Positions 1 to 59,040 of a stretch of 64,000 bases of DNA are shown one piece after another. A program made the translations under genes and the position numbers. The stretch comes from Perkinsus olseni (taxonomy: Eukaryota), in NCBI GenBank assembly GCA_013115125.1, contig JABANN010000017.1:1-64000 (forward strand), given 5' to 3'. Below the pieces are notes generated by a model. That model searched no databases, was not told the DNA's origin, and worked only from the letters and a program-made list of their open reading frames with translations. The number at the start of each line of letters is the position of its first letter. Position 1 is the first letter of the stretch.

Positions 1-70
<70 letters not shown>

Positions 71-71: not shown

Positions 72-87
72 CTTCTGCAACTGTCAA

Positions 88-7204: not shown

Positions 7205-7271
7205 CTGTGAGTGGCGTTGGGTTATTCAAGTGAGGACTTTCAACGCAACGCTTGATGAAGTACAACTACTA

Positions 7272-8251
7272 TCATAACATGTGCAGAACTGATCTGGCGA
7301 AGATGTGGTAGTCCACCGTCCCTGATGGCAAAGCCGATCATACTCGGGAAATAACAGAGATGATAACCTCACCGGTGGCCGTTGCATCGGCCTGTCGAAT
7401 CATCCCGTCCGCCTCTTCTTCGGTCAACGCGTCGCCCATCGACGTCATCACGTTGATGAGCTCAGCTGCGTCTATCTTCCCACAACCCTCTCTGTCGAAG
7501 ATCTTGAAGGCTTCAATAACCTCTTGCTCTGTTATGACACTCCTTCTCAATAAGGATACGAGCCTGATACCACAGACCCCTTACAGCTGCTTAATCGACG
7601 GGTGTCCACCTTATAAAGTCCTGGAAATTCAATAGCCCTTTGCCCGAGGGGTCAGCCTGATTGAGTGCCTAGGGAAGGATCGTAATCGACATGAAAATAG
7701 ATTTCGTTGATACATCAGTAAACTCGTCGTCACTGCTCGACCCACCCGCCCTGACGACAGAAATCAGCACAATTCTTGCAAGCTCGCCGCTCACCGGTTG
7801 AATGCAACCCGAGCCTCTATTGAAGTTATCACGCCGTCGCCAACGACATTGACGGTTTGGAATTCCCGGGCGAGTTCAGCGATATCCTGCGGGGACCGAC
7901 TCCAATGGGGCCACCAATCGTAACTTGAAGGAAATTTTTGCGGCCTTACTTTCTCACAAATGCCATGAGCTTCCTGAAGGGAGAAGTCGTAGCCGAGCTC
8001 GGAGACTGTCGGGAACTTGACCTGCTCACTCTGATACGATATTGGACGTTTTCCGTATCCCCTACCCCGAGACCCTCCAGCTCGATAATCGTTCTCTCGG
8101 CTTCTGTCAGCTCCTCTGTCTCTTCTGGTTGAGTGTCTTTGAGTGATTTATCTGCGTCTTCGCCCGCAGAGGTTCGATCCCCGGTCTCTTCCTGTTCAAC
8201 CATCGGGTCGACGGACTGTCGATTTTTCGCTTCGCCCGAGGCCTCAGACAT
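7272..8251 (-). CDS. Calmodulin-like EF-hand protein with an acidic N-terminal extension
   Basis: EQEVIEAFKIFDREGCGKIDAAELINVMTSMGDALTEEEADGMIRQAD..TVDYHIFARSVLHML*; stop codon at 7272-7274. Confidence 0.85.
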
Positions 8252-9064: not shown

Positions 9065-11324
<2,260 letters not shown>

Positions 11325-12515: not shown

Positions 12516-13066
12516 ATGCCCACTTTCTCGGGGGTTGAGGCTGTGGACTTGGTGTTGGCTGATGATGAGGACGACAATCTCGACGTGGCTGAGATGAGCC
12601 TAACTTGTCATGGTTTTGACGAGGATCGGATCAGTCGAGTGAACTGCGGAGAAGATGCCATCGATAACGTCGTAGCAGTCCTACCATAAATCGACCTACT
12701 CGCGATTCTGTTCTCTCAGTTGGAGCTGCAGGAGAGTGACGATGTAGACGACCCGGTAATCGTCCTCCTAGATCTCAACATGCCCCCAAAGATGGGCGGC
12801 GCTGAGGCTGCCGAGAGGATCCGAACGATGATGGGCAACGAGGAACTAGCTCGGTATTCCCATGCAGAAGGTCGTGGGTTCGAATCCCGCTTGCTCCCCT
12901 CAGGAACGTCATGTTGGTCTGCTGTTCCGCCGGCCGAGTGGAGGACCTCAAATCCCAAAGCTGGGCCCACAACTTCGATCATTTCTGCACCAAGCCCTTC
13001 ACGCCCCAAACCGCCGAAGAGCTCGCTACAGCCATCGAGCAATGGTGCGAGGAACAAGATGAGTAA
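12516..13066 (+). CDS. Stand-alone response-regulator receiver (CheY-like) protein, 3 exons
   Basis: Spliced product: VLADDEDDNLDVAEMSL..NCGEDAI / VIVLLDLNMPPKMGGAEAAERIR / NVMLVCCSAG..FDHFCTKPF..EEQDE*. It retains the acidic pair, the phospho-acceptor Asp (DxxMP), the Ser switch residue and the KPF motif. Confidence 0.85.
12854..12903 (+). pseudogene. 50-nt intron made almost entirely of a tRNA 3' half
   Basis: gta-ttCCCat-gcaga-aggtc-gtggg-TTCGAAT-cccgc-ttgctcc-cctcag: anticodon loop, stem, variable loop, T-arm and acceptor strand in correct spacing. Removing it restores the receiver-domain frame. Confidence 0.75.
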
Positions 13067-17790: not shown

Positions 17791-19258
17791 ATGCGCGTAT
17801 CGAGCATCAACATCGCCCTCGCCGTTACACTTCAGCAAGCCACAGGAGCCAGCCTACCTAAGAAGGTAAGTCGCCCTACAGGCGCAGGTCACCTCATAAT
17901 TTCCACTCCTCGCCATCCCACCTACTTCTGTGTTTCCAGGCTAGATTATCACCAAACTCTGGTGCTGTGCGGCAAAAAAGCTGTACCCTCACGACAGATG
18001 ACTTCCAGGGAGAACAGGAGCTCATGGGCATATATTCCAGCAGGCGAAACGCCAGCTACTGGCCAGTAAGTGATGTCTAGCCCAACACTGAGGGTATTCC
18101 TAAGTTGATGGTGACGTAAAGAAGGTCGCCCCTCGTTTCGGACCACGCCTCGAGTGCTTTTCATTTTCTGTAGCACTGGGCATCAGTCACTGCCAAATAC
18201 GACGAGGAAAGCGACAGCTACTTCGTCGATCACGTATCAGTTGAAGCAACGTGAGTGGGGATGTGTCGCTAATCATGGGCCCCATGAGATTGAGGACGAT
18301 TTTCCGCCCGCCGGCTTACTGACCGAAGATGGACCCCATTTTCAGGGTGATCCTGCTCCCCCAGCTCCACCTATGCCACGGAATCTTCCACTTTTTGAGT
18401 CCCGGAGAGGTACCGTTCGAAAAAGCGGCAAAATACACGCTGGAGAGTGATTCTGACTGCGAGGAGAGTATCATCAATGGTGCGAAACATATGCTCTTCA
18501 AGATGGTGCAAAACCCTCTGTCCGAACCTCAAGACTGCGTGGCCTGCTACCAAAATCTGTACGCTAAGATGACTAGGAGCCCTAGAATCTTATCGCCGCT
18601 CATTATCTTTCACTTTATCTGGAGACATGACACGAACTCATCTATGCCAACTGAATGGGCTTTTAGGGACTACCCACATTTATGGAATGAGGTGAGCATA
18701 GCAGGGGCATTGAACAATACAAGGAGCGCTAAGCCACCTCCACAGGAAACCCTCGAAGTGCAGCTAGGCATGACCTGGAGCGGAGTGCGCAATCATGCAT
18801 TCTTATCGGAGGTCGTCGTGTCGTATTCCTCGAGAATGCTCTGTCCGTAAGTGCGCTTCGCTAGCAGCGTTGATGCCTGGAGCCACTTTTCTGTCAGGTT
18901 CCTGCTCTCTGAAGAAGGCCTGAGCCTTCTGCGGTCCGCATGGCGAGAAGTGAGTCTTTCAGGTCTAGAGAGGATGCAGAAGAATGCATCAGCCATGATG
19001 GTTGACATTGCCAGAGAGCTTCTGAACAATCATGCCGTGAGAGGCAGAGCTGAGATACCCGGGTGGAACCTCATCACCGACGAGTACGATTCAGTAAACG
19101 TAACGGTCCCTTTTGCTGAGATGCTGATCACCGCCGTCGCCCTCGGCTGGGACCAGGAGCTGCAGCCTTTTCGTCCTAGACGGTCGGTGCGCGATTACAT
19201 GAATCGGGTACTACTGCAGCGTCCGCTGCCCCCTGCGAATACAGCCGGGGCAGCTTGA
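17791..19258 (+). CDS. Hypothetical secreted protein, multi-exon
   Basis: Signal-peptide-like N-terminus MRVSSINIALAVTLQQATGA, followed by a GT donor and long coding-like exons at 18329-18850 and 18851-19258. Confidence 0.55.
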
Positions 19259-20314
19259 GAAGAAAACCAGGTTCAATTCCGTCAGATGGTACTCGTAGTG
19301 ATGTTAAACAACCTGTCTTGTGTTGCAGTGGAACTCTTGGTCGAGTGTCTCACAGATGTCTACCAGATGACGTGCTAAGTGAGACCGTGGGAACTGGCGT
19401 AGCTGACGCTCAGACTGAGCGGCTCAGTTCCGTCCGAGTTGTCATTCACAGCCTGTGATAAACATCTTTGACTCAACAGCACGCTACAGACCCTGTGGGC
19501 GCCTGAGTCTAGTTGCGGGAGGAGACTCCTCCATGCCATGCAAATTAGGAGAATTGCTCGCAGTTGCACGTTTTGGCATGGTCTTCGAGGTCCGGTTGAT
19601 GGGTCTCTTCACTGTGTAGAGATTGTCCCTATACTGCACAATAATTGTCTCCGATTTTAAAATTATGCTGTGTCGTTTATAGCGTGACGCTAGAGCGCAT
19701 TACTCAGATGTTATTGTTCTTTAAGCTCGTGTAAAGCCTACGGCCTTTACTCATAACGAGTGTCTTGGGTTTGGTTCAATTTACTACACTGTCGTCAAGG
19801 ACGACTCGTCATTACGATGGTAGAGGCAGGAACACAGAGCACACCCACCCCCAAATCCCTGGCCACTCGAGTTAGCCCAGTACGTGTCCGCCGCCGAGCC
19901 TCTGTCGTGTTGTAAAAACGGCGCAGTGCAGGTTAGATGGGGATACAGCCTCTAGTGCTCTGAACTTTCTCTCAAAGACTTGGAATCGTGCAAGTGCCTA
20001 AAACTTCGCAATTTCGCCAGTAGGCGGTGCCGAGGCTATCAAGCCAGGGTTGGGAGCATGCCAACGACGGCGAAGATTCGGTTTTTCGATTCGGTTGGTC
20101 GAGAGACTTCTCAGACACTGTAGTATCAGGGTGACTGCGAAATATCTAGAGGAAAGCCATGAATGCTTCGTAGACCACACGTCTCTCGAAGCTACTTGGA
20201 GATGTCGCGTCCATCACAGTTGGGAACGTCATGATAAGTCACCGTTACATTTGGCTGTCTGACGGAACTTGATAGGCTCACTGCCCATGGTGTCTGTGGC
20301 GTGTGTGAGTTTAG

Positions 20315-21579: not shown

Positions 21580-24085
21580 TCAGCGCCAATCCGTCGGCAA
21601 GAAGAAGGAGCGCGACGGGGTCGTGGAGGTATAGAGAGCGACGTCACTTACATTAAGCATACCAGGGAGGTTGCCGAAGGGCGGTGGTAGTTCTGGCGGC
21701 TGTAAAGTCTGCGTGTAAGAGTCGGCGATCTCGTTGGGCACGTAAACGCTTTTGGCCTGCTTCTCTTCTTCACTGCTACTGCTGCTAGAGGGGGAAGATT
21801 CCGAGGACGACTCCGAAACAGTATCATCCGATTCCTGGTCCTCCGATGAACCATCCTTCGAGCTGTTGTTGCTGCTGCCATCGCTACTGGAAGCGGAGGA
21901 ACTGAAAAATGCAATACGAGTGACGCCCAACTGAGTACGTCAGCCCACTCTAAAGAAGCTAACTCCGATCCGGACTGCTCGTCGTCCTCCCTAATGTTAT
22001 CAGTACCGTCATCACCGACTTTATTTCCACCGGAGCCTCCAGGCACGGACTTAGCCTTGGAAGACTTCTTCCTGACAGATGACGAGGATATCACCAATAC
22101 TACTGCTGATGATGCTAATCATCAAGAATAGTACTACGCTTACTACTGTAAGCACACACTACTATTATCACCACCATTACTATCACTCCCACAGTGGGAG
22201 AGGTGTTCATAGCAGTGGAGTAATAGTAATACTGTAGTAATAGTATTACTCGCAGCGGATAGTAGTGGTAATCCCACTGTCNNNNNNNNNNNNNNNNNNN
22301 NNNNNNNNNNNNNNNNNNNNNNNNNNNNNNNNNNNNNNNNNNNNNNNNNNNNNNNNNNNNNNNNNNNNNNNNNNNNNNNNNTGGAGTAATAGTAATACTG
22401 TAGTAATAGTATTACTCGCAGCGGATAGTAGTGGTAATCCCACTGTCTACCACTAACACTACTGATACCCGACCCCCCTCACTACTTCAAAGGATATAAA
22501 CATTTCTATGAGTATCACTGGTTACAACGGACACTGTTCAAAGCACTGCTAGCATTCTCCTCCCATGATGACGGTCCCTTCTACTTTTTCTTTTTCGCTC
22601 TTTCTTTCTTCTTCTTGGCTCTCTCCTTCTCCTTCCTTCTGCGGTTTTCCTTCCGTTTTTCCTCTTTCTCCTCCCTCAACGCCCCGAACCTCCGTTTCCG
22701 ACCAGGGTCAATCGCCGGATGTCGGTGCCTGGGTCGCGGCTTCAACTGCAGAGGGAGGTATCCGAGAGCTTCCTCTGGGCAGGTTGGGACGGCGGGGACC
22801 ACCCGCACATCTGAGAAATAATAGTCCACCCCTGAGTACGACACTGGTCCTGAGACTTTTAAGCGAGAACATTAATGTGGGCTCCTTCGGCGACCACCAC
22901 GCCATCCACCAGTGACCAAACGATGCTCGCTGGTCGGTGGATGCCGATACAGCAGTCTGCAATGACGAATAAAATGCAACATGCAAAAATGAGGCCACTA
23001 GACCGCCACGCCGACTTGAGGCCGGGGTACTTTGAAGTACTGAGCCAGCAGAGTGCCTCGAGTCCTAGCTGCTCGCGATTTTCGGTCCCTACTTCAGACT
23101 CCACAAAGAAAGGTCCTTTGTCAATGGACGAATATCCCGACTTAGTGATCTTCGGACCTTTCGCGTACCATGCGGCATAACAGTCTCAATTGATGATCCG
23201 TCTCTTCGTTACAGATTGCATGCTGCGGAACCGCGGGAAATCTTTCAACTGGCGGCGGAGTGTAATGGCCGTATATCTGCTGCGCTGTGATACTCCGGCG
23301 AAGTTTAAGGCCCAGTTATCCTCCACAGTGAGCGGTATACCCCACAGATCAGCTCTCAAAATTACACTAACAACACGCGGCAGCCGACAGCAGTCGGATC
23401 ACACCCTCTTGCCCAGTTGACCCAACGACCGGGGATATACGATTCGTTGAATTTAAAACTGATTCTTGAAGCGCCCAGCCGAAGTGACTAACGGCATGCC
23501 GGGACTGGCTGTACGGAGGCACATTCCAAGTCCTGTTTCCCACTAGTACTACAACACTCATACTAAGCACAGCGAGGAAGGGTCGAGCGACCGTAGACCC
23601 CCTGCAGTACAAGCAGCCGTTTCGTCTCCTGAGCTGAGGTCTCCGTCGTCACGGGGTCGACTCGGGAGCATCCTGAAGCCGTTCTGCAATGGCTCTATCC
23701 TTTCACGTCTCATTGGAGGCATATCTAAGGTCGACCCGTGCACTTCGCATAATAGGTGACCCTGTAGTACCATAAAGATTCCCGTACATTTGTTTTCTTA
23801 TCATCCTGTCCTCCTTCCTCAGCTGTTCAGCTGTGGCTGGCTCCTGACTGTCCAGGAAGAGGTCAACCTCAGGCAGGCTGGGCTTGGGAGGCTTCCGTGG
23901 TGCCGCTACAACGTTGGCAATCGGCAGCCCCTTGCCGCCACGCCACGGAGGCCCCCTAAGAAGCAAGCTTCGACCTAAGATACGCCACTCGCGTACCCCT
24001 TCTTAGCTAGAGGTACACCGCCGCCCTTTCCCTTGCCGACCCCCTTCCCTCCTTTACCCCCGCGTCCTTTACCAACAGCATTCAT
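21580..24085 (-). CDS. Hypothetical protein with a G/K-rich N-terminus and K/E- and S-rich low-complexity regions; spans an assembly gap
   Basis: MNAVGKGRGGKGGKGVGKGKGG.. splices to LLRGPPWRGGKG..; later segments are EEKEEKRKENRRRKEKERAKKKK and SSSASSSDGSS..PTDWR*. Confidence 0.45.
22282..22381. other. 100-N assembly gap flanked by an identical 66-nt duplication
   Basis: 22216-22281 is identical to 22382-22447. Confidence 0.95.
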
Positions 24086-24330
24086 GTTGATAACCTGTGA
24101 TCTTATCATACGCAATTCAAATCTCGCTACGCCATGCTGATCGATATCACTCGCTTATCAAATCTTGCGTTGTATATATTCTTATCATCCACGATCGGGA
24201 GCCCTTACCGCCGTGTGGCTTGATAGGACCTCTTCAGCGTCTGCGTGTGGTGGGGAGCCTTCTTAGCATAACCTAGGAGTCGCGTTATCGTTAATACCTC
24301 TACTCAGCAGTTGGCAGTCTTGATCTGAGT

Positions 24331-27300
24331 ATGAGTACAGCTGGTGGAGCGTATCAAGATGGGACTGGACCTCGAGAAGGGGGGCATGCAGGCATCACCA
24401 TCGCTTTGCCAGCCCATCATCCTCTTTACCCGGGGGACTTAGCCGACATGTCGCCGTTACGACACTCCCTCTCCCGGCCTGAGAGAAGACAATCGGTACT
24501 AAGGCAAGGCGGGAAGGGTCACTTAGTGTTGGTATTCAGTCTATTAACGTGCTGGGCTTCGACCTGTATGATGCTGTTGAGGTCGAACAGAAGGGTTGGA
24601 GGGGCGCCAAGGAGTGGGTGCCCGGCACGATCGTGCAGGTGAATGCTCATAACAACACCTTCGACGTAAAGGTAATAAGGATATCTTTCCTCCCGCACGG
24701 CGAAGAATCTCGAGACAGGTCTTGAAACCGAATCAAGAGGGAGAGGTGTTGGAGAACGTGAGCCCAGTGAGGATGAGGCGCATTGCGGAGTCAAGGCACC
24801 CTCACCAGCAGAAGGGCCGCGATAGCCCTCAGTGTAATCCCACCACCACCGGCGCTCAGTCGGGCGATGGCGCGTCTTCAGTGGGTCCCGTCCCGGGAGA
24901 TTCTCCAACTCACGGTGGACAAGACTTTTTGAAACAACGTCATTTGGGAGCCGCGGACGCCTGTGAGATCATGGACGAGTTCAACTTCCAGATGCAGGCC
25001 AGTCTGTTCACTTCGAAGGTAGCCTTACAGTGAGGGCCTCACGTCGTATCATGCTAGTCGGGTAAGGTACTCAAGCAGCTTGATTCGGTCCCGGAGTCGG
25101 ACTTGATGGCGGTGTCTCCCTGTGTGAAGTCTCTGGCACATGTGAGAGGTAGTGAAGGGGGGCGTATCGTGAGTAGAGGGGGTGCTCTGGTGGTGGAAGA
25201 ATACTCGATCTGGGCTGCTCGATCGTCTCTGGTCGGTTCACGAATCCTTGAGTGGTTAACTCCTCTTTGAGGGTGTCCTGTACGTGCATGGGTGCTGTAT
25301 GTTGCAGAGAGGACGAGGAGTCGAGTGGAGAGCGGCGAGGGCCCCTTGCTGGACCGCTTCTTCTTCCAATGTGACACGGACGCGGCAGCCGGCCAGGCTT
25401 CCACTTTCCCTACTAGTGCGCAAGTGAGTTATTAAATGGCGTTGCTGAGGATCGAACCGGGGACCTGTTGTAGGTCATGAAGATGCTGGAGAGCATCACC
25501 GACTTCCACGCCAATTGTCCCTTCACGAACTCGGGTGGAGTGGCGGACGTCGCGATGGGCACCAACTGTATCGTAGCTGATCGTCACTGTGAGGAGGTAA
25601 ACTGAGCTATCGCGTCGCGCGCCAAAAAACTCGCTATAGCCTGACCGAATGGAGTCTGGTGTCTTGCTCCTCAGATTTGCAGTCCTGAGGCGATGGTACG
25701 GCTTCTGGATAAAATGTATGAGCTGCTCGAAATGGAGGCGCCGGTGAGCTCGCAGGCTGTCATAGTGACGATCCAGGTTCGAATCCGGGCTGGTGTCTTT
25801 TAGACCGCCCTTATATCGGTGACGGTACCAGCGGACGGTCGGTTGGTAGTGGTAGGAGACACTCATGGTCAGCTGGAAGATGTCTTGTGGATGCTGTTCA
25901 AGCATGGTGTACCCAACAGAAATAACGTGTAGTAAATATAGGATGTCGGAACTAGGGATCGAACCTGCGCGGGTCATAGATACCTTTTCAACGGCGACAT
26001 TGCTGATCGGGGAGGCCACGCTTTGGAGATCTTCACCTTGCTCTTCCTCTTCAAGCTACTATGTCCACAGAGTGTAGGCTTCTTGTCGTAATCCAAAGGT
26101 CCCTGGTTCGATCCCCACGCCCGGCAGGTATACATTCTCCGTGGCAATCACGAGGACGATTACTGTAACTTGAACTACGGCTTCCTTGCTGAACTCAGAC
26201 ATAAATTCGGTCAAGTTGAAGGTGGTCGGATGCATAAGGACTTCCTCAGGGTACACCACTCTCGGGCACTATCTTAGCTCGTACCACACCTTGCCCGCAT
26301 CAGGTCTTTTACAGCCTGCCCCTGTCATGCGTGATCGATTCCTGGGATGGATACTATCGCTGCCAACAAACGCATATGTTGGTCCAGCTCAAAGTTGGAT
26401 CATCCCCAGTAGCGGTGACGGACGTTCCCGGGCAGCATAGGAGAGTGGTAATGAGGGGGCGTACCGCGTAGCCTACCTGCTCTCCCCTCACTGCGCACCC
26501 GTCTCTTCCCGCAGCTGTGTCAGTGAGCACTTCATCATTCGATACCGATAATATGCTTTGGCGCTCGCCGCTGTACTCCCAATGGGAATTATCCTTATTT
26601 GGCTTCATGTTACAGCGGTCGATGGCACGGGAGGTGTACTCTACAGGTGCCCGTAGTGCTTCGTGAATGTTCGGGCGAGGACACCTCAGACAGCAGCTCG
26701 AGCGATGACGACGCGGATCTGAGCGCAGAGAATGGTTGGTATCAGGGAGGGGTGTCCGAAGAGAGGCTAGTGTTCGATAAGCGTGTTGGTGTCCGAGGCC
26801 TGAATGAAAATGGCGATACTGAGGTACAGTGGGGCGGTACTCTTCCGAGTGCATCCAAGCACTTCTGCTGCTGCTGATGCTGATGGTGGTGGTCAGATCA
26901 AGTGGTCTTCGGGAGACATCTGGACCTACGTATCGCCTCGCCTCATCGTGCTTCATGGTGGTCTGCCGATGCACCCGGGCTCGGGCTCGCCGATAAGCAC
27001 TCAAAGACCCACCGGAGCTTTTGCTTCCTTATTCTCGTAAGAGCAGTGTGTATAGCCAGTGTCGTCGAGCCTGTGAGTTTCCTCGAGAAAGGTCGTTGGT
27101 TCGATTCCCTCGCCGACCATTTTCCATTTTAGGGGCTCCTCGGCGATGGGGTCACAAGCCGGCGGCAGCAGCAGCAGCCAGGATGACGATGGGAGGAGGT
27201 GTGTCCTTCTCAAGTACTTCCATCAGCTCCCGAATCGCATGAGGATACCGAGCTCACCGCAAGGAGTGTTCGAACAGTGGATGTATCAGATCCTCTGGAG

Positions 27301-30300
27301 CGATCCAAGGTCATAATGAGAGGGGTGGTGGGCGTTACCCTTATCTATTCTTATTCGCCTCGTGAAGGGTCCGAAACTCGACAAAGCGCGATGTTTGCTG
27401 CAAATTTGTTGGTCGGAATGGACTCGGTAGTTGTTGCTGCGGTGCTCACCATTTTGAGGGCTGGTTGTGATGAGGATGAAGGGTCTCTCGTTCGCAGGGA
27501 AGTTGGTGACACGAAGGGAAGAGGTACTCCGTTCTACCCCGATGACACCGAGCTGTTCTGCGACCGGAACAACATCCACACCGTCATCCGGTAGTACCAG
27601 AGGGTCGCTGTCTGCTCCTAATCCTTGGTTGTAGGAGTCATCAGCTGCCGGCCATGCAAAGAGGATTCTCCTTCCATCACAAGCATAAGCTCATCACCAT
27701 ATTCTCGGCGAGTAACTATTGTGGAACCTCTCAGAACTATGGAGGTAGTACTGGGATCACGCGTCTCCTTCTTGAGGGGCACGTGTGTGGACAGTGGATA
27801 CTGCCGAACTGGGCTAAACGGTGTGACTGAGAAGAAAGTTCGTGACGTAAAACATGCAATAGTTGGGCCACTATGCCACTGAGCGCGAGAACGGTGGTCG
27901 AGGTATCGAAGCAATGACGAAGTGGTGGGTGCTGCCTGGGGCATCAGTTGTAGTAGCAGCTCCGGCTGCTCTCACCGCTTGGCCTAGTGGTCTCCTCTCT
28001 GCATCTTACATTCTTCCCGTTATAGCCTGTATATCGAATGGTTGTTGGCCTTGCCAGCGGTCTCACCATTGCAATTTTCTTCTCTCCATTGGTCCCCTCG
28101 TCTACACGTCTTTCTTGAACATAACCTGTGTCCTCCCCGTGGAATCGCTGGGACTATGTTCTTTAGTATCGGTATCGCTGATATACCAACAATCTTATTA
28201 CTCTCAGTGATTCTTGACCCAGAACAGTCGTAGTGCTTCAATGAGGCTTGTGAGAGAATCTCACCGTGTCCTGATCACTCGACATTTTGATCAGCTATTG
28301 TGATGGAGAAGTCTGCTTGGCATCGCCCAGCTAGCCGACCCCGTAGTTTCCCGTTTTAGGTCTTCTCATCTTCACCACGGAACTCTTCCCCGAGATACAG
28401 TATTCTCGTAACCTGTTCGAGCATTGGAGCCCTCCTCTCTCCGTCATACAAGATGTTTACTCCAAGGTCAGTCGCGGCAGCACCGTTCGAGCGCTCTCAA
28501 TTTCCATTTCTTGGTCAGCACAAGAATGCCAGTCAAGACGTACGACAGTACATCGCCAGAGAGACAGAATCGGCGCGGATGCCGACTGACATGAACAGCA
28601 GCACAAAGTGGCTGCATATCGAGGAGAAGGTCTCGGAGTACGCCATGTCACTGATTGTGCAAAACAAGAGACATCTGTGGACTAACTTGTGGACGCGGGA
28701 TGAGGATAAAACTATGAGGGTGGATCTTGCCGATTGGGAAGATGTGATAATGGCGGGGTGTGGTATCGAAGGGCCATTTTGTGATTCGATCGCATCAGGC
28801 CTGCGCCCAAGTAGTGGGGCATCAGTTCCCTTGGAGGACCCTATTCGTGCAGCTGGATATTGAAGAGGAGGATGATGGCACTGTGGACTACCTGGACTTC
28901 CTCAATAGGTTCAGAGCTAGTCTTCGGGACGAGAGTGGTAATAGGTGGGGGGCCTCTGCCGGGTCAAGGGGGCTGTCCAGCTAGACGCTTTTCCACTGAA
29001 GAAACAGCATCACCAGGATTGGCCGCCTGCTCGATTTCGTACCACTCCTCGCTGTAGGTCCCTTCGATTCCTGGCTGGCATCAGTCGTTCTTGGATTCTT
29101 TATGGATATTCTCAATGCTGATATGGCAATACAACAAGACCTGCTCACTGGGTAAGAGGAAATCTTGCTATCTTACGATTTCTCAACGCGGACTATGAAT
29201 GGTGAGTCCATCCAGGCTTCATCATCTCAGGGAACCCGGCGAGAACCTTATAAACTACGAGCAGTTCGAACGGTCACTCCGCGACAACTGTCCAGACTTG
29301 ACAATCACGCATGTACGGATTTCATCGCTCCGCTAGGGAAATAGTTCATGTTTCACTCTTTTCAGATCCAACTTGTCTGGCAAGCCCTCATTGAGTGTTC
29401 CACCCCTGAGCGCCGTCGTGCTGGCCTGGTGGACGCTCGCCAGTTCGTGTGTGCTTGCGGCGAGTTCTATCGAGCCCGATGGGTAGTAGGAAATGGGTAT
29501 TATTTTTTGCATCGCTCCGTCGTCTCAGGATCTACACGAGCCCGTCTTTTCGACTGCACAGACCTTACCGTCGGCCAATGAGGAGGAGATGCTTGAGAAG
29601 ATTATGGACTTCCTCCCGAGACTGCGGGATTCCATCGAACAGAAATATGATAATGACACTCAGGTTGGCAATGGGGGAGTGTGCATATCATCAGACCTCT
29701 TGAATTTGGCGGTGGTCCGTATCTTTCTCTTCTGTATAGATCTCGGGCGAGGTCGGTTGGACCGAGTTGGTTGCACTCCTAAGAGTCTTCGTTTCCAAAC
29801 TACTGTCTCCAGTTTTTAGATGGAATTGCATTTTTCCGTCGTCTGAGAGTTTGCGATTTCTTGGCTGTTTCAGCGATTCTTCGAAGAAAAAATAGAAGAT
29901 CCCGCAAAGAAGAAGATTCCCGGCGCGGTCTCTAATGAAGGTCAGTCTATCATCCATCAGCGCACCACCACCACCGTCATTCATTTCCACAGACTTCGTC
30001 AACGCGTTGACCGCCGAGCTTCCCTCTTTGGGTATCACCGAGCTACCATCGCGCAACTTCCTCGAGCTTACCGCTCGCATGATGGAATCTAGCAGCGCCA
30101 CCAGCAACGGCCATCCGGCCGGCCGAGGAGCTCGCCTGGTCAGCTCAACCAACAGCGGCTACGTATCTTTGTTCCGCTTCATGGCTACACTGCACGTCGA
30201 TGGTACGGAGGCTGGCCGGGTGATGGCTCAGAAGATCATGGAACATAGCTGCGCGGCAACCTACTTCCACCGGAATGCGTTCAAGTGCGCATGTGCGCGG

Positions 30301-31241
30301 CTGGATCCGCAAAACTGTGGAGAGATTTCGAAGAGGAATTTCCGGAAGGCATTCACGGCTCTTAACCAGGCCTTGGATCCTGAATGGCGACTGACAAAGT
30401 GGGGAGGGGACAGGGTGAAGCGTGGGTCGACGGGATTATCGTCAGGTTGCAAATCGACGCTGCGTTGGACCATTTCGACTGGACTGTGGATGCAGATGAA
30501 GAGTTCACTGATGGTGGGTGATGGCAGCTCATTTCGTTGTACCTGGTGGATTTGCTCAGCATCATCGTCCGATCAAGACATGAAGTCCGTGGATGAGGAG
30601 CCACCAGCTGGGCAGGCCAGGCGTCCCACGCTGGGGGCCCTATCAGCTTCCAACACCAACAGTGCTTTGGAAATGCTCAGGGGTGAGCTAAGATGCTCTC
30701 TATCGCGTTCTCTTGTAGAATTGGAGAAGGGACGGGTGTTCACCTACGCTGGTGATTCTCCCCTTCCTTAAGAAGGTGTCTTGAATTGAGATGTTCGCGA
30801 AGAGTGGTATAGAGAATATACTCAGTGAGAGAGGATACCACACTAAAATATAGACTTATACGTGATACCACACCAATGGTTAGTATGAGCATGCAAGTGA
30901 CGGAACTAAATAGGACTAAGTGGATTCAAATATAATATTATATTCTTTCTGTCAGAGCGTTCGCGGACCCGTTCCTCGGCCCGCCTGATGCTGCCACCGG
31001 GCGCGAGTACGTCCGCTCCGATGGTGTTGGACCAACCACAACCGGAGCAATTGGATCAAAAGATGTGGATAAACTACGATCAATTCTTGAGGTCATTCGA
31101 GATAGCTGATTGGAGGAAGAACAGCAGGTGGGCGAAAAGCCCACGATTACATGCATCGCTCCGCTCATTTTTTGTGACATTTTTCTCAGAGCTGGCTCCT
31201 TCGGTTGGCATCTGCTGCGAAACAGCATGTTGAGATTTTAG
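24331..31241 (+). CDS. PPEF: PPP-family Ser/Thr phosphatase with C-terminal EF-hands (PPEF/RdgC-like), many exons; termini approximate
   Basis: [61 protein letters not shown]-hand-like segments [19 protein letters not shown] and [14 protein letters not shown]. Confidence 0.88.
25424..25473 (-). pseudogene. PPEF intron containing an antisense tRNA 3'-end fragment
   Basis: Reverse complement reads aggtc-cccgg-TTCGATC-ctcag-caacgcc-a-ttt; the T-stem is partly mismatched. Confidence 0.65.
25600..25616 (-). pseudogene. tRNA 5'-end/A-box-like fragment, antisense, in PPEF intron 25597-25674
   Basis: Reverse complement reads gacgcga-TAGCTCAGTT: a 7-nt acceptor strand followed by the canonical D-arm start. 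Confidence 0.45.
25744..25803 (+). pseudogene. 60-nt PPEF intron collinear with a tRNA from the D-loop to the 3' end (Asp-like GTC loop)
   Basis: G|GTGAG-ctc-gcagg-ctGTCat-agtga-cgat-ccagg-TTCGAAT-ccggg-ctggtgt-c-tttt-ag. Confidence 0.7.
25929..25979 (-). pseudogene. PPEF intron containing an antisense Ser/Leu-like tRNA 3' fragment
   Basis: Reverse complement reads cccgc-gcagg-TTCGATC-cctag-ttccgac-a. Confidence 0.65.
26074..26127 (+). pseudogene. 54-nt PPEF intron containing a Phe-like tRNA 3' half that ends at the acceptor AG
   Basis: atccaa-aggtc-cctgg-TTCGATC-cccac-gcccggc-a-g|. Confidence 0.75.
27080..27123 (+). pseudogene. tRNA 3' fragment in PPEF intron 27037-27132
   Basis: gaa-aggtc-gttgg-TTCGATT-ccctc-gccgacc-a-tttt. 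Confidence 0.65.
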
Positions 31242-31692
31242 ACGACACTTCTGTGATAAAATTGTGTCTCACTCCCCCTCGTCATCATCATCACCGTCGT
31301 GGTTGTTGTGACGATGGTACCTTATCGGTCCATCGGCAGCAGCAGCCTCGTCTGTGGTTCCATTTCATCGAATCGCTTATGTTTCGCACACCCTCTAGTG
31401 GCCGCGTTAGTTGCCTTTAAATCCTCACATGCTTAGCATGCTTCTATACCGAAAATGGTCTATCTTCTGATTCGCTGATATGTCTATCATTGACAAATGG
31501 CGCTTTCCTCCTGTACACCTTCTTCAAGACATTAGTTTGCTCCGGAGTAACATTGATGTGCTAAGGGACACTAGGATAACCAAACGTCAGAAGAGGATGG
31601 TAACAACAACACCTTTTCAAGAGCATACTTCTCCTTATTTCTCAATGTTGTCTATATTATTATGGTACCTGTCATTACCCAACTCATCATCA

Positions 31693-34372
31693 TTAAAACC
31701 GCCGCATCCCCCACCAGGCAAGGAATTCCTTCATCCCAACCTCCCCTTGCGGGTCCTTCTCGACGGACAGCCAGAATTGCTCTAGCCTTGCCTTTGGAAG
31801 AAGGGCCGGTCGGGAGCTATCCATACCTGAGGACACCACCGTCTGCCCGCCACACTTCCGAGTTGTCGCACCCATGAGCTCCATGACCAGCGTCTGAAAC
31901 TCGTCACGATCGATTTTTCCAGATCCGTCGGCGTCGAGCCGGTTGAACTTCCTACAAAATCGCCAGCAGCGGCGCCGTTATGTTGCTGCTGCTGGCCTTA
32001 CTTTTGTATTGCCTCAGCGTCCGGTATCGGCACGCTCAGGGCTCGGGCCATTTGCCGGAGCTCTCGCTCGGGAGTTCGTAGGAGGGCTCTCTGAGTTATG
32101 CATGAGTCGACATTATGATACGCACAACAGTATCCGCTATTCTCCCAACTGCCAGACCGACCTCGGAGAAGTAGTCCTCGAGCTCCTCTGGCCTAGGTGG
32201 TCGGAAAATCTCTGATTGCATCCTTCGGGGTATGAGGGTCTGCCGCCCTGATCATGATGATGGCCGTGCTAACTAACAGCCTTTCTCGTCACACCCACCG
32301 CCAATCTGCTCTATCAGTTCCCGCCGGGCCGTGTCCTTCGCTTCGCTCTTTCGCCGTAGCTCCTCGCGCCTAGCGTCGGCCTCTGTTACACTGGACAGCT
32401 CATTACGCATCCTAGGAAAAGTAAGCGTCACGCGCCACGAAACTCACCACCACTGTGGGAGCTCTCACATCTGCATTCGCCTTCTCTGGGAGGCGAAGTC
32501 GCTGACGGCTTGCTCGATCCGTCGACCCTGAGCGACAGTCTTGGATACTCAAGCGTTTGAAATCAGCTGGCGCAACCCACAACGGCAGCGATGGCCTCGA
32601 TCTCCTCCCTCTGTAGCCGAGCCAGCGCTGCTGTGTCGTGCAGGTCCCTCGGCAGATGGGCTGCCAATGTCTCGAGCGAATGAACTCCTTGTCGGAAGGC
32701 AAATTTAACCCAACTGAGGTACAGGTCACCAAGGTCAGATACAGAGCGGAAGATACTTCTTCCGTTCGTCCAGCTTCGCAGCCGCTTTGACGTTATTCAT
32801 GAGCCTGATGAACTCCTGCTCCGGACTCTGGGCTGTCCACTGTGGATGGTGGAATGGTCGGACACCCTTCTCCTCTGCCACAGGCGGAATGATGGTGATG
32901 GCGATGCTGCTGTTGGTTGCCTACCTGATCGTTGCCTCTCCTCGATGATAGCAGCCACTCTGTTGCAGTAGTGCTTCCATTGGCCCTCCTGTGGCATCTC
33001 TTGCCATCGTACTCGAGGAGTACACCTACGCCAGCGGGCATGGCCGAAGGATCATTCCCTGGACATGTTCTACTTGCGGCCGACCAACTCGTTGATGTCG
33101 ATGTCGCCGCTGACATTATCATCGAACAACTTGAACACTTGCCGGATGGTCAAGCCGCCCGACACCTATTGGAGCGATCGCTGCTCAGCAGTGCATCGGT
33201 GGTGGTGGCACGTACCAAATGCCAAGGAATTCTCAGTCGATTAAGGCCATCCTCGAACTCATGCAAGGACAGGTCCCCATTAGCGTTCAAGTCCATACGC
33301 CTGTAGGCCTTCTCCACGGACCCGCAGGTGAGGACAAGGGCTTCCCTGCGCAGTAAAGGCTCGCGGCTTGCGAGACGCTGATCGTTATCACCTGAGAGCG
33401 GCCCTTGGAGGCATCGCCTTTAAGTGCTCAATACTGATCAGCTGTCCAGTAGTGGTGAGGACCTGGTGGAGGACAGGGAGGGGTGTCGTGTCGTTTTCTA
33501 CTACACTCACCTGCCACTCAGCCCCGTACTCTCCTCCCGCTTGAGATGCCCCCGAGAGTGATGGCCTCCGACTATGCCCGCCTGAGAACTGCACGTCGAG
33601 CCGCTGCTCGCCAGTAGGAATGTCACCTTTCCCGTGTATGGGAGGACGCAAAGCGGCGCCCTGTTCTTCGTCATGCCACGGTAGCCCTCGGGCATCCTCC
33701 GCAAGGTCTTTCGATGAGGTTGACGTCCTTGCCGAAGGACGCTTCCCCTCATCGCCTTGCCCAAGGCTCAGCCTTTCTTGCGACGCCCCTTTCTCGCTTA
33801 GTATACTCTTGGGTACGCATTCCTTCGTCCCCACAGTGGTCTGCGGAAGCGGCATTCAAGCTGCATCACGGTCGCTCTGCTCACCCGAGACCCCCTCTTT
33901 CGCCCCTCGGCAACGTGTACATCGACAACCTTCGCGCAGACCGCGGCCGCAACCAAGCAGGCTATCTGCAGCAGTGAGATGAGGCCCGTCGTAGACCCCA
34001 TCGGCCTACCTTCCTGCACTCAGCAGGGTCGATACGTCCGTCTGTGAAGTCCCTGGATACCGTAGCGCTTGGTGCGGATTGATCAGCTTCCTTGGTACGA
34101 GGGTCGAATACTTCGGGCAGGCCCTTCTTTTCTGGAACTCGATCAGGGATCTGAAAGAAGTCGAGGCGTCACCTAGGTGCTGTTCTACGTGCGCCGCAAT
34201 GATATCAGCTCCACCCAGAATTTTGGGTTGAGGCTATGACTTCACGAGCGTGAGAGAATAATGATACACCATCGTACAGCTTTTCCCCTACCATCTGTCC
34301 CGCCTGTGTTGTTTCAGGAGATGGCTCCCCTCGTGCGCTCTGTTGTAGCCTCTCTAGTCTGAGGTGTGCCAT
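31693..34372 (-). CDS. EF-hand calcium-binding protein, multi-exon; start uncertain
   Basis: GSVEKAYRRMDLNANGDLSLHEFEDGL; FNRLDADGSGKIDRDEFQTLVMELMG; VEKDPQGEVGMKEFLAWW. Confidence 0.7.
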
Positions 34373-35343
34373 ACCACTCCGTCCGCGCATCCTATTTCGT
34401 CACCTTGCCCGCGTCGTGTTGTATTCCTTCACCATTAGCCCTATACTTCGTGCTTGCCGCTTCAGCTCAGCCTCGACCCTCCGCAGATCCCTCTGCAGCT
34501 GCCAAGTACATCCGTGGAGACCACACCAAGCGTGGCAGCCTTCTACATTTTTCCGGCGTTGTGCCCCCTTTTGGCGTCGGATAGCCGGTAGATGATCTCC
34601 AATCCGGTAGATGCTCTCCAGTGAGTGCTTGGGTGTCGTTGAGAAGGAGCCCTTGGTGGTCGTGGTGGCCTGCAGTACACCATGCCAGCCTCTGTTGCCG
34701 TCGGTGTCCCTACTGTAGCAGCCATCGTCGAGACTGTCCGATGCATCGTTGCTGTGTGTATTGGCGGCAGGTGTATGCTGTCAGTCTGCTGTCTTGGGCT
34801 ACAAATGTCCGCCTCTGATGGTGATGTCTTTTCGTATCTGTCGCTGATCCACTCACAAGAAGCTCCTTGGGTGGTACGATACCCGTCTGTTGTCAGCAAT
34901 GTGGCGAGGCTTCTCGTTCGTCGCTGGCGTTTCCTCCAAGGCCCTCCTCCTCCTCTTCCAGTGTGAGTGGCAGCAAGGGATGCTACGGCTATAGCTAGTG
35001 ATGACATGACATTTCAGTTTTACAAGTAACAGCACAGTCAACTGGAAGGAGGACCAGTACCCTCACCGGTGTTGAGTTAAAAGTCGTTCTTCAGTCTATT
35101 GCCGTGGCACCAGTACTTGAGACATACTCTTGCTTCATGATGATGATCATCAACCTTGGAAATCTGGGCGCGCGCGATTTAGACTGCGCAGTTCTGCCAA
35201 GAGCACTTGTTGCGTTGCTTTCGATTGGCCTTGCTGGGCCTCCCGTGAATGAGTGAAGAGAGGGGCCATGAGGTTAGGTAAGGCACAGATCGTATTCCCT
35301 GTCAAGTAGCAAGTTTCTGATAATTCCCCCAACGGCATCATTA

Positions 35344-36492
35344 ATGGCCCAACCGGTGACCGACGAGGCTAGTAATAACGAAAGAGACCGCCGAAGGCCC
35401 ACTCGAGTAGTCCACCCGTCGGTTCAGTCCTGGCCCAGTTGGCTGCCATAAGGGAGCAGGAGTGTGCTTCCTTACCCTTGGTGTCATCACCGTCACCCAT
35501 ACAAAGCTTCACTGAGCAGCTGGAGAGCAGCAAGGGTAGGGCGTGGTCCGTTGAGGGTGGCAAGGACGTCCTCTCAGCTCCCGATACGTTCATTGTGAAA
35601 TTGAAGTCTCTGCCGAAGGAGACCCGGATAAGACGGATACGACCGGACGGCAACTGCTTCTACCGAGCGTACGCCTTTGGGATACTGCAGGTGAGTGCAC
35701 ATCATCGTTGCCCGCTGGCTTTGTGCAGTAGTGGAGCGGGAAGCCCTACCCACTCACGCGTGTCGTATCAGGCCCTCAGAGACCACGGCAGAGAGCCGCT
35801 GCCTAACAGCACTACTGTGCTGCAGGCCTGGTTCCGAACGTTAGTGTCCACTGAGGCGTTGGAGTGCTGCGAGAAGGCCGGTTACCCGAGGTGCTTCCCA
35901 CGCAGTAGTACCGCTTCGAACGGGCTTCGGCAGGTTTACAGTGGAGGACCTCATGGAAGCATTCCTCGAGGAAATTGACAAGCTCGAAGGCTCCGATGCA
36001 GCAGTGGAAATCGATAGCGAGAACGATGCGTACATAGTCAGTTTCCTTCGGTGAGAGTTCCCGAGGCGCCTTCTAGGAGGAAAGTGGTGCTTTGTCAGGT
36101 GCCTGTCCAGCTCAGTAATGAAGCTCCATTGTGACGAGTATGCGCCCTTCCTCGGTCCCGAGTACAACACCATCGACCAGTACTGTGCAACCGAGGTGGA
36201 CCCTATGTATCGGGAAGCCGATCAGCTACCTATTGTATCACTGTCAAGGTGCGACCTAAGATACCCGCCCCTCCCGTCACTGCCCTCCCCTCACAGGTTC
36301 CTCCAGTTCCCCGTGGAAATCGTGTACATTGATCAGTCGCCCGAAACCATCCCAGGTGCATCACCATGGTGACCATCCCCCCTCAGTATTCCCTCTGCTT
36401 CAGCTAGACATACCTTCCCCTCTCTCAACCCCCTCCACCTCCCAACCGTCCGGCTGCTCTACCGCCCCGGCCATTATGACCTTCTTGTGTGA
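35344..36492 (+). CDS. OTUB1: Otubain-family deubiquitinase (peptidase C65)
   Basis: MAQPVTDEA/ILAQLAAIREQE; catalytic RRIRPDGNCFYRA; YCATEVDPMYREADQLPIVSL; LLYRPGHYDLLV*. Confidence 0.92.
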
Positions 36493-36598
36493 ACCAGTGT
36501 CATTTCAATTTGGCATAATCAACTTCTCGCGTTGTCAATCTTGACCGACTCGGAAGTAACAGTCCTGCTCGCCGAAGATTCCATTCACCCCATCGCCC

Positions 36599-37634
36599 AT
36601 GCAACAGTCGGGAGATTCTCAGGAGGACGAAGAGCGGCCCTATCAGGTCAGTCCCCTGGTTCTGTCAACCACAATCAACGACTCAAAAGATTTGGAGAAT
36701 GGCCGCTCTCAGACGTCCCTGCCTGCCTGGCCCCTGAACGAGGGTTCCCTTGTAAAGAGCCGGTATGACCAGCCAGTGGGAGGCGCCAGCTCGAGCGAAC
36801 GGCTGCAACGCCGACAGGAGCTGTGTGCTCGGGCGCGAGATGAAACGATCAGGATAATGAGCTACCGCCAGATACAGCGAGAGGCGGTACGCCGATAGCG
36901 GCCGCTACTGGGTTTATTTCATCCCGCGGTGTAGGTAAGGGAGGAGATGATAAGAAACAAGACGCTGGATGAGACGGAGAATGTCCAGGCCACGTAAGTT
37001 GCCATTTGAATGGGAATTGGAAACTAGAAAGACGGAGTTGTACAGTTACGAAAGAAACAACCGGTGGGGAGCAAAATTGAAGAAGTCGCCGTTCACGGAG
37101 GACTTGGTAGCTCAGCTGGAGCAGGCGCAGCGTCTGGCCGAGGAAAGGGAGATGGTAGGCAAACCTTAGGGAAGTGCGCGTGAGTTTCAAGTCCAACCCG
37201 ACAATCGGCTCAGCCACGGGAGTAATAGCTTATTAGTAATAGGGATGATGAGTTTTCAGGAAGAGAAGCGGGAAGCTCGGGAGCGCTACGTCAGACATCG
37301 CGATGCACGGAATTTGATTTTCAAAAGGGCAGTGGCCGACGGCGACAGATTGGAGATGCTGAGACGGTCGGCGATGGAGGGAAGATTATTGACGGCGATG
37401 ACGGTCGTTGATCAGGGAGAAGCGAGTGCTCTTGGAGAACGAGCGAAGGCTTGCTGCGATGTGTGACGTGGAGAAGACGAACGCCAAGGCCCTGCGGATA
37501 CACGAAGAACGGCAGCAGAAGGTAGGCTACTGATGATGATGGGTGGAGCTCAGTGTGGCTGTTGGTAGGAGATTGAAAGACAACAGCGGCTGTTGCAGAA
37601 GAAGATATCAGCAGTGATGGGTGGCAAGCGTTGA
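36599..37634 (+). CDS. Hypothetical charged coiled-coil protein
   Basis: Exons rich in E/R/K (RWGAKLKKSPFTEDLVAQLEQAQRLAEERE; IFKRAVADGDRLEMLR) separated by short GT-AG introns. Confidence 0.55.
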
Positions 37635-37807
37635 CGCTATCAATTTATCAGCTCCTCGTTGTTGACTTTAATATGTTGCGTCTTTAGTCAATCATATTGA
37701 GGTCTTCATAGTCTTAACAAAACACGACCCATATAACATCAAAAACACTCACATAACAAAGTGCTGTTTACTTATTATTGGAGGGACCGTGGAGGTGGTA
37801 ATGAAAT

Positions 37808-39172: not shown

Positions 39173-39481
39173 CAAAATTACAAACAAACTTCGCGAAAAG
39201 TGACCTTGCTCTGAGAGCCACATTCCTCAGCTTGCTCAGCAGGTCCTATCCAACACGGCTATCCCCCACAGAGAGGTTCATCGGAGCCAGTCCGACTAAG
39301 CCGTACTGCCGGCGTTGGACTTTAACTCACACACAAAAAGTTGGTACGAACACGACTACCCGGAGAAAATTGACGCACGCTGCCGGCCACGCTAGCACAC
39401 AACCGAGGGAAGGCTGACGAACGCAAGACTCCTGTGGAGACACAATGGACAGTAAACATTAGCTTTTTTTAGCTCTGATGG

Positions 39482-40922
39482 TCAATAGTGGGGATACGCT
39501 CCGACACTCGAGTGCTGTCCAGGTTGGACATACACCGCGGGCTGACCATCAGGACCAGGCGGCGACTGACACGACACACCGTTTGGCAATATGTGAAGAA
39601 CACAAACACCCACCTGATAGTTGCTTGTTACAAAATTAGCACTGCTGTACCCAGGGGCGCCAGGAGGGGCTGATGGTGGCCCAGCACTGAACGGCGGACT
39701 GTAGTACTGTTGCTGCTGTCCGCCCGACTGCACCTGCACGAGGGGTTGACCATCCGGACCAGGTGGGGCCTGAGGCACACACAAACTATAGCGTGGTACG
39801 ATGCGATAGTACTGGGCGGACCTGATAGTTGCTGGTGGCGAAGTTGCCGCTGTTGTACCCTACAGACGGCTGCGGAGGGGGGACCGATGCGCCACCGATG
39901 ACTCTGCCTTGAATCTGATAGAGAGAGTTCTACCGTTCACCACACTGCCGTGCACGATCTCACCATAGGCCCTCGGCCAGCATTACTCCCCGGTGGAGCC
40001 GTACTTATGACAGTAGCATTCACTACAGCCGGCGCCCCGCCTCCCCCTCCTTGAGTATACGCAGTTGCTGCCGTTGCCGCTGTTGCTGGCATTGCAGTTG
40101 CTACTACGGGCTGAGCATTCTGAGGAGAGGCACTTCAATCCCACGTTGTTACCCAACAGGGCACTCACCCCATACGAACTCGTATTGGTCACGACCGTGG
40201 CCATGATTGGCTGGGACGGCTGCTGCTGTTGATGATGAGACGCTACGGGTACTGCAGTCGCATGGGCGACTACTGTCGGCGTGGGCGTAGCAGTTTTGCT
40301 GCTAGGAGTACTCGCCATCCTGATCGCTACGTTTAACGTGCCGGCCTTATTCGCCCCGTCTCGATACCTATGCATAGCCGACAATGAGCACTACCGGAGA
40401 GTAGATGTATTACAGCACGAGATCTCCTTCCCAATGTCCATGCTTGGCGATGGAGGCCATGCTCACCCGCGCTGACCCTACCTGCAAAAGATACCTATCT
40501 CATACCAATCGGTTATCGTACGCTCGAGAGGCCAGAGGAGGGTTCCATCGCAATGACTTACAAAATCGTCGGAGCTAAAGGTATCTTTGTCCCACACTTC
40601 AAAAGAGATCTCAGGCTCATCATCATACTTGAACTCCACCGACTCGTAGAATGTCGGGTTTCTTCCAACGTCTTTTTTAACCTACCGGAAAATCATTCAT
40701 CCCATCCCGGAATCGAACCTGGGACGTCAGGTTGTCAAACCTACATCAGTCTTATATTTTTTCCCGCGACCAAGTCGGACTTTGACGTATCTGACAACGG
40801 TATTGGTAATGCTACCATCAGCGAATGGTATCTTACGGATCCATCTTGCCGAACATCTCCGTATCATACAAGTCCCGAGCGTATTTGATCTCGACCTTCA
40901 CTTTCCTCTTTCCCTCGGACAT
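39482..40922 (-). CDS. C2-domain protein, paralog 2, with an A/Q/P-rich tail
   Basis: VKVEIKYARDLYDTEMFGKMDP/YVKVRLGRGKKYKTD/VKKDVGRNPTFYE..FEVWDKDTFSSDDF; same intron positions as paralog 1. Confidence 0.88.
40682..40744 (-). pseudogene. 63-nt intron of C2 paralog 2 containing a tRNA 3' half
   Basis: gtaggt-ttGACaa-cctga-cgtc-ccagg-TTCGATT-ccggg-atgggat-g..tag. Confidence 0.7.
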
Positions 40923-41107
40923 TAAACTCAATAAAAATAAGACGACCGACCAACTGACGAGGAAAGCTACTCCGCAAGCAGCCATTCGCTATCACCCGCC
41001 GTAATGGGAACACAAGAGCAACCAGCTCAGAGTGAAACTGAGCATAAACAGGAGTTACAGACGAACAGTATCAGAATGATGAACAACAATCACTAAAGAG
41101 TGCATGA

Positions 41108-58973: not shown

Positions 58974-58983
58974 TATACAACAA

Positions 58984-59040
58984 AATACACCTACCAGGGA
59001 TCGAACCCAGGACCTCTAACTCAACGCCAACAGTCTCACC
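58984..59040 (-). pseudogene. tRNA-like fragment forming a putative 49-nt 5'-UTR intron (59039-58991)
   Basis: G|GTGAG-act-gttgg-cgttgag-ttag-aggtc-ctggg-TTCGATC-cctgg-tag|gtgt-a-tttt. Confidence 0.65.

Follow-up and report, generated by a model that had tools for sequence, protein, structure and literature searches.

Ultra-short introns built around tRNA-gene fragments in a phosphatase gene of Perkinsus olseni

We identified fragments of tRNA genes in five introns of a PPEF-like serine/threonine phosphatase gene of Perkinsus olseni, and a weaker candidate in a sixth. P. olseni is a parasite of clams and other molluscs, an alveolate related to the dinoflagellates. The gene lies in the window analysed here, the first 64,000 nucleotides (nt) of contig JABANN010000017.1 (assembly GCA_013115125.1), which, judged by its sequence, is nuclear DNA. 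The fragments sit in GT-AG introns that are spliced out, they derive from tRNA genes and they do not function as tRNAs. Our analysis suggests that units derived from tRNA genes form a noticeable minority of the ultra-short introns of P. olseni, most simply by insertion. The origin of new spliceosomal introns is a long-standing question, and the known large-scale source is transposon families, the introners. The work is based on the window, on one set of public run contigs (DNA run X1; RNA runs X7, X8 and X15) placed on positions 22400-42399, and on public protein and metagenome collections.

The exact B box of the tRNA T arm (GGTTCGAWYCC) occurs eight times in the window against 0.17 expected, a count that none of 100 shuffles reached, and is absent from 80 phosphatase-homologue loci of other organisms (423 kb). 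Four of the eight lie in the phosphatase introns considered here, and a ninth site, at 25448, has one mismatch. A profile built from the nine pieces (nhmmer) recovered only those nine at 18-23 bits; the next match scored 7 bits (E 0.6). Moreover, the pieces share features on which the search did not depend. The variable loop AGGTC is exact, in tRNA register, in five of the nine, and in four an oligo-T begins exactly at tRNA position 74, one base past the discriminator, which is where the terminator of RNA polymerase III (Pol III) follows a tRNA gene. Since this geometry is independent of the search motif, the pieces descend from tRNA genes. When all pieces were compared with one another, they had only the universal tRNA core in common, and they therefore come from several source tRNA types.

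An earlier note on this DNA had described tRNA-like pieces of different types and in mixed orientation in six introns of the gene. This description is confirmed for five of them (Table 1): introns 5, 7, 8, 9 and 13 carry the variable loop, the T arm with its B box and the 3' strand of the acceptor, in antisense in introns 5 and 8 and in sense in the other three, and the restriction of their similarity to the universal core bears out the different tRNA types. The piece in intron 5 consists of AGGTC, a T arm whose B box is one mismatch off, the acceptor 3' strand, an A and then TTT, while the one in intron 8 has CCCGC in place of the AGGTC loop, as does the piece at 8171. At intron 7, positions 25738-25797 align over the full length of the Rfam tRNA model, the 5' acceptor strand falling in the exon and the anticodon arm being nearly deleted; the oligo-T of this unit forms part of the 3' splice site, TTTTAG (terminator plus AG). 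In intron 9 the AG of the 3' splice site is the discriminator A plus the next G. Indeed, the sense pieces end at the 3' splice site or just before it. The sixth case, in intron 6, is weak. Its piece does resemble a tRNA 5' end (acceptor strand and start of the D arm), as had been proposed, but its 9-base core, TAGCTCAGT, occurs exactly once and is not significant alone: with up to one mismatch, 22 matches were found in the window against 14.6 expected, and 5 of 100 shuffles reached 22. Two weak nhmmer matches, at 29060 and 26335, are coding sequence, both encoding a D-S-W motif, and were set aside as chance. The word TCGTACCAC, present in three introns, was not significant and was dropped; by our own estimate, 9-mers common to the introns occur at about chance level.

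Table 1. Phosphatase gene, its introns with tRNA-like pieces, and further pieces in the window (positions in the window; bit scores from the nine-piece profile)
Feature	Position	Strand	Description
PPEF-like serine/threonine phosphatase gene	24331..30769	+	PPP catalytic domain with inserts, EF-hand-like C-terminal part
Intron 5	25424..25473	+	50 nt; antisense tRNA 3' part 25431-25467 (37/50 nt); 22.4 bits
Intron 6	25597..25674	+	78 nt; antisense 17-nt tRNA 5'-end-like piece 25601-25617, no B box; weak case
Intron 7	25744..25803	+	60 nt; sense tRNA-like unit; 20.9 bits
Intron 8	25929..25979	+	51 nt; antisense tRNA 3' part 25938-25974, exact B box; 21.0 bits
Intron 9	26074..26127	+	54 nt; sense tRNA 3' part 26095-26127; 21.9 bits
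Intron 13	27037..27132	+	96 nt; sense tRNA 3' part 27087-27124, then TTTTCCATTTTAG; 22.2 bits
Predicted intron, receiver-domain gene	12854..12903	+	50 nt, from frame continuity; sense tRNA 3' part 12867-12901; 21.2 bits
Intron, C2-domain gene	40682..40744	-	63 nt; sense tRNA 3' part 40695-40729; 22.4 bits
tRNA 3' part, paired T stem, oligo-T	58982..59017	-	Probably in an intron of a minus-strand gene; 23.0 bits
Weakest B-box piece	8164..8198	+	Between PP1-like and calmodulin-like genes; 18.0 bits

The pieces are not tRNA genes; most are the 3' third of a tRNA gene plus trailer, without the whole 5' half. ARAGORN found no tRNA in the 64 kb, and no Rfam family reached its gathering score in the window. 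Even at E <=10, Rfam returned no tRNA match across the window, the only T-arm match (12873-12890) being filed under tmRNA. Run on 704 nt, the tRNA model RF00005 matched intron 7 only, scoring 15.8 bits (E 2.9) where the gathering score is 29. Of the outer three T-stem pairs, 13 of 27 form over all pieces and 5 of 15 in the phosphatase gene, where chance would give 37.5%, and the stem is fully paired only in the pieces at 12877 and 58997. The A-box consensus occurs twice in the window against 1.0 expected and is nowhere paired with a B box. These two exact A boxes, at 27868-27878 (minus strand) and 27980-27990 (plus strand), both lie in a 615-nt intron of the phosphatase gene, in which Rfam likewise found no tRNA.

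The six introns begin where the earlier note had placed them. All are GT..AG, and a deposited P. olseni protein (P0121, 1257 aa, named 'protein phosphatase, EF-hand calcium binding domain [Perkinsus olseni]') is identical to our spliced model across all six junctions; over its length it is 96% identical to the model and departs from it in three places, none of them at these junctions. Removal of 28 GT-AG introns, a minimum for this gene, from the ATG at 24331 onwards leaves a single open frame of 1285 aa. The catalytic motifs of PPP phosphatases are GDxHG, GDxxDRG and GNHE, and the spliced frame holds GDTHGQ, GDIADRG and RGNHE, each built from adjoining exons, so that the clean joining of the exons into these motifs described in the note stands as well. 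The splicing of introns 5-9 is supported by the deposited protein together with RNA depth. A model in which only exons are covered gives 380 and 449 covered bases in the bins 25068-25734 and 25735-26401, and predicts a depth ratio of 0.846; we observed 0.846 in X8 and 0.847 in X7. The ratio in X15 (0.713) is off the model, and two contigs of unequal depth meet there. Across the gap at 27037-27132 (intron 13), the coordinates of the X15 contig record are contiguous. Of the 15 RNA joints listed out of 70, five belong to introns further downstream in the phosphatase gene and the other ten to two genes on the minus strand. The DNA run X1 has none of these 15, and none corresponds to the six introns in question. 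The 615-nt intron of the gene is also covered unspliced by an X7 RNA contig (27720-28387).

As for the domains of the phosphatase, Metallophos is found on P0121 (precomputed) and on the homologue of the metagenome locus L001 (E 4e-20), and only weakly on single P. olseni exons (E 0.076). EF-hand_6 matches one exon weakly (E 0.093), in addition to the EF-hand in the deposited name. EF-hand Pfam domains occur in many homologues, the closest group listing Metallophos only, and a search of the ESM Atlas with a C-terminal exon gave only generic EF-hand-like clusters. The L001 homologue has the same architecture in one unbroken open reading frame of 1121 aa, against which the P. olseni exons lie flush at introns 5-9. 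Its locus (1-11066) is a compact, apparently intron-free eukaryotic contig of 45.5% GC with three genes back to back (the phosphatase homologue, an XPG-like nuclease and a Utp21-like gene). About 20 proteins like it, 44-50% identical to the P. olseni phosphatase, are present in public metagenomes, and the organism behind L001 may be an uncultured relative. With the L001 protein as query, tblastn aligned two additional stretches, 31045-31128 and 31173-31232, beyond the model end at 30769, and the 3' end of the gene has, from these alignments, probably been set too early both in P0121 and in our model. Intron 13 lies inside a Ser/Gly-rich run of about 29 residues (26960-27200 of the window) that is absent from all aligned homologues; the coding sequence around this insert may itself be new.

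The lengths of introns 6-9 (78, 60, 51 and 54 nt) are all multiples of three, so that exons 25474-26250 are in the same frame. With the intronless homologue as query, tblastn covers these exons in a single alignment. Despite their length, each of the four introns contains an in-frame stop. Lengths divisible by three were found in 6 of 8 tRNA-type introns against 6 of 31 other introns (Fisher P 0.006, a post hoc comparison).

The phosphatase gene is not the only place where such pieces occur. Seven of the nine lie in curated or predicted introns, the eighth is probably intronic and the ninth, at 8171, is put in an intron by one gene-finder setting and in an exon by two. Outside the phosphatase, the intron of the C2-domain gene, 40682-40744, is confirmed by an RNA joint that is present in X7, X8 and X15 and absent from the DNA run X1. 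Of the 17 T-arm bases of its piece, at 40709, 16 are the same as in intron 7, the A-G mismatch among them. The predicted intron at 12854-12903, with its fully paired T stem, follows an exon with a weak Response_reg match (E 0.013). For the piece at 58982-59017, a rough gene finder places an intron at 58991-59097 on the minus strand, and this piece is therefore probably inside an intron of that minus-strand gene. Additionally, at the end of the predicted intron 19208-19285 stands a B box with one mismatch that the 3' splice site truncates. The 5' side of its T arm matches intron 7 and the 40709 piece, and from its sequence it may be a tenth, truncated member.

Other features of the window are recorded for completeness. 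An assembly gap of 100 N (22282-22381) lies a short way upstream of the phosphatase gene. An MMPL/RND-type transporter gene without introns occupies 1-2643. The product of its frame (1-2640) is 100% identical to a deposited P. olseni protein and 76% identical to a protein of P. marinus and 64% to a protein of P. chesapeaki, and its nearest named relatives outside Perkinsus are proteins of Entamoeba marina and actinobacterial MMPL proteins; the gene may go back to an old gene transfer. At 42464-42516 there is a near-perfect hairpin of 53 nt that weakly resembles a microRNA (24.6 bits, where the gathering score is 76).

Five tRNA-type introns in one gene invite the question of whether the run is special. 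The earlier note had held that such clustering is hard to explain by random insertion and had suggested a local hotspot or a selected array. We counted introns by combining the curated ones with the predictions of a self-trained gene finder, about 80-85% precise inside curated genes when tested on its own training genes. The window then holds 97-169 introns, of which 7-9 (about 5-7%) carry a B-box piece. The probability of at least five B-box introns among the 28 of the phosphatase gene is 0.0035-0.02, and that of at least four within some five consecutive introns is 0.0014-0.0038, so within the window the claim of improbable clustering stands. The genome of P. marinus is of the order of 87 Mb (PMC7789003), and scaling to about that size, an extrapolation that assumes uniform density, leads one to expect about 2-5 runs of this kind by chance. 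The hotspot or selected array suggested in the note is therefore not established from clustering alone. The note had also named what would speak against it, namely B-box introns so frequent that runs are expected; this was found by half, in that about one intron in twenty of the window carries a piece and that other genes have them too. Better supported than an array specific to this gene is the general point that tRNA-gene fragments make up these ultra-short introns.

How did tRNA-gene fragments come to be introns? We think that tRNA-gene-derived repeat units were inserted and are now spliced out, an origin similar to that of introners, and give this reading a probability of about 0.5. Units from several tRNA types would have entered coding sequence in either orientation, the insert itself becoming a GT-AG spliceosomal intron. 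The T-rich terminator of sense copies would have become the polypyrimidine tract, and an AG close to it the 3' splice site; the complement of the tRNA 3' end in antisense copies starts 13-15 nt past the 5' splice site. On this reading, the run in the phosphatase gene would be a local excess of insertions, through regional bias or chance, with no designed array. Size argues for this origin. In six of the seven introns measured, the piece takes up 33-38 nt of 50-63 nt, leaving 13-28 nt, whereas the shortest RNA-confirmed intron in the window has 46 nt and the minimum reported for P. marinus is 39 nt (PMC3101222). As the remainder is smaller than both of these, insertion into a working older intron is unlikely for these short introns: the fragment either was the intron from its arrival or took the place of what an older intron had contained. 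The argument fails for the seventh, intron 13, where 58 of 96 nt are left over.

The analysis also suggests something about the sources and the timing of the insertions. About 30 nt of the intron 9 piece (26097-26126), including its non-pairing stem, recur at >=95% identity in other X1 contigs, whose match to the window either starts at 26097 or stops at 26126, the rest of the contig being unlike it. Together with the mismatch common to intron 7 and the 40709 piece, this recurrence points to multicopy sources that were already degenerate, rather than to local decay. Within the window no decayed cores score 8-18 bits, as against the nine pieces at 18-23 bits, while simulated copies diverged by 5-15% fall mostly at 8-18 bits; this lack would be expected after a recent burst and also under constraint on the core. 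A recent burst from degenerate tRNA-like sources fits intact cores with broken stems as well as selection does. As for raw material, P. marinus has been reported to have 349 tRNA-Leu-CTT and 116 tRNA-Gly-GGA genes, as well as Dada transposons that target tRNA genes (PMC3706591); large tRNA families and Dada elements thus exist in the genus, with no demonstrated link to the introns.

Several observations weigh against an origin by insertion. Neither target-site duplications nor fixed termini were found in 39 introns beyond the AG/GT context (junction repeats were 0-6 nt long), and the window contains no family of near-identical full-length copies. The outer pairs of the T stem are at chance level, which excludes direct copying from working tRNA genes and makes it necessary to assume degenerate sources. 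None of the metagenome contigs contains the 30-mer of intron 9 in exact form. Gain and loss are not polarised, and the intron-poor organism behind L001 may have lost introns. Finally, the intron census comes from a rough gene finder that recovered 25-30 of 38 curated introns.

The closest competitor, which we consider unlikely, is that the introns are old and only their filling is new: tRNA-gene fragments would have replaced the ancestral content without any gain of an intron, either through insertion followed by deletion back to a preferred length or through conversion from many tRNA genes. The length of 50-63 nt is the mode of the gene set, as would be expected if selection holds length, target-site duplications are lacking, and the large tRNA families could be donors for conversion (PMC3706591). 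Nonetheless, this course needs two events per intron, five times running; just 13-28 nt of sequence other than tRNA are left, and conversion requires a prior homology that an unrelated intron does not have. At the other extreme, chance resemblance, in which ordinary introns happen to contain words like GGTTCGA, can be dismissed almost completely. One-mismatch B boxes are indeed no more frequent than scaling of the exact-match expectation would predict (about 4 independent sites against about 5), and the intron 6 piece could be of this kind. For the five B-box introns, however, the excess of exact boxes over the shuffles and the control loci refutes chance, and variable loop and terminator geometry occur together with the box.

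Two further alternatives give the pieces a present function. Selection may have kept the B boxes for a putative TFIIIC-like factor that acts on chromatin or on the passage of RNA polymerase II (Pol II). The box is exact in eight of nine pieces while the flanking stem pairs are at chance, pieces occur in both orientations, there is no tail of decayed cores and the run is improbable within the window. The exactness, however, is partly a matter of ascertainment, the exact motif having been the search query. Features for which such a factor would have no need, the AGGTC loop and the oligo-T at position 74, were kept as well; lone pieces sit in unrelated genes; the intron 9 piece recurs with its broken stem, so that its form was inherited from the source and not shaped locally; and with about 5% of introns involved, a few chance runs per genome are expected. 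Simple copying accounts better for the kept loop and terminator, the lone copies and the recurrence of the intron 9 piece than does the TFIIIC idea, which we regard as improbable. The same doubt applies to its widest form, in which Perkinsus would have a genome-wide class of ultra-short introns seeded by tRNA fragments, their B boxes selected as putative TFIIIC-like landing sites and their runs serving as functional arrays. Still more remote is that the introns house working small-RNA genes, whose products, resembling tRNAs or tRNA halves, would be transcribed by Pol III or released from the excised intron. The oligo-T at the terminator position and the end-to-end alignment of the Rfam model to intron 7 would agree with it. 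Yet neither ARAGORN nor Rfam at its gathering score recognises a tRNA, A boxes are not enriched or paired with B boxes, T stems are broken and the 5' half is mostly absent.

Insertion of tRNA-gene-derived units can also be set beside known systems. Introners are transposon-derived spliceosomal introns, described from Micromonas, Aureococcus, dinoflagellates and Amoebophrya. As with these, the insert in P. olseni is nearly the whole intron and is spliced, as the proportion of each short intron taken up by its piece and the RNA joint at 40682-40744 indicate, and it occurs in unrelated genes and in both orientations. Introners differ in having families of nearly identical copies, terminal repeats and target-site duplications, none of which the window shows for the pieces, and the pieces are fragments of 35-60 nt from the genes of several tRNA types. 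Perkinsus is an alveolate related to lineages known for invasive intronic elements (PMC7789003). We found no published case of tRNA-gene fragments as intron bodies, in Perkinsus or elsewhere, although supplementary species tables may differ: the main text of a 2024 review uses 'tRNA' in general senses only and mentions no tRNA-derived introners, short interspersed elements (SINEs) or Perkinsus (PMC11282704), and the main text of a 2025 survey, whose supplements may list species, mentions no tRNA, SINE, Perkinsus or alveolates (PMC12130899).

tRNA-derived SINEs and tRNA pseudogenes resemble the pieces in their intact B box, degenerate cloverleaf pairing, several sources and dispersal. The head, body and tail with flanking duplications that characterise a tRNA-derived SINE are not present here: mostly only the 3' third is found, with no properly spaced A box, no tail that is A-rich or like that of a long interspersed element (LINE), and no flanking duplications. 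The pieces also differ from a processed, CCA-ended RNA copy in that the Pol III oligo-T follows them directly, as it would in a copy of the gene. Another comparison is with extra-TFIIIC (ETC) sites, B boxes that carry TFIIIC without Pol III. In sequence, the pieces have, like them, a consensus B box without a full Pol III gene. ETC sites have been described as isolated B boxes, sometimes clustered, with proposed boundary roles (PMC3395662). Unlike these, the Perkinsus pieces lie in short introns of Pol II genes and have kept features of tRNAs other than the B box, which speaks for a recent ancestry in tRNA genes rather than for a dedicated site. The Dada elements of P. marinus, 4.7-11 kb long, have tRNA genes as their targets, where TAGCTC is duplicated in the A box (PMC3706591). 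The genus is the same as in our case, and the elements show tRNA genes there to be numerous and to be broken by transposons; the difference is that large elements there go into tRNA genes while small fragments here sit in introns. No Dada-like sequence was seen in the window, although no dedicated search was made. The capture of tRNA-gene ends broken by Dada is a possible link, and a speculative one.

In this window, then, there are introns that are little longer than the tRNA-gene fragments, Pol III terminator included, of which they consist. If what holds for about one intron in twenty of the 64-kb sample is true genome-wide, a source derived from Pol III genes would be added to those from which introns arise, and the T-run of the terminator would have been reused as a polypyrimidine tract. 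Perkinsus would be a tractable system in this respect, as three sequenced species and polyploid haplotypes could be used to date the gains. Finally, intact B boxes inside Pol II genes raise the testable question of an interplay between Pol III factors and the Pol II genes that contain them.

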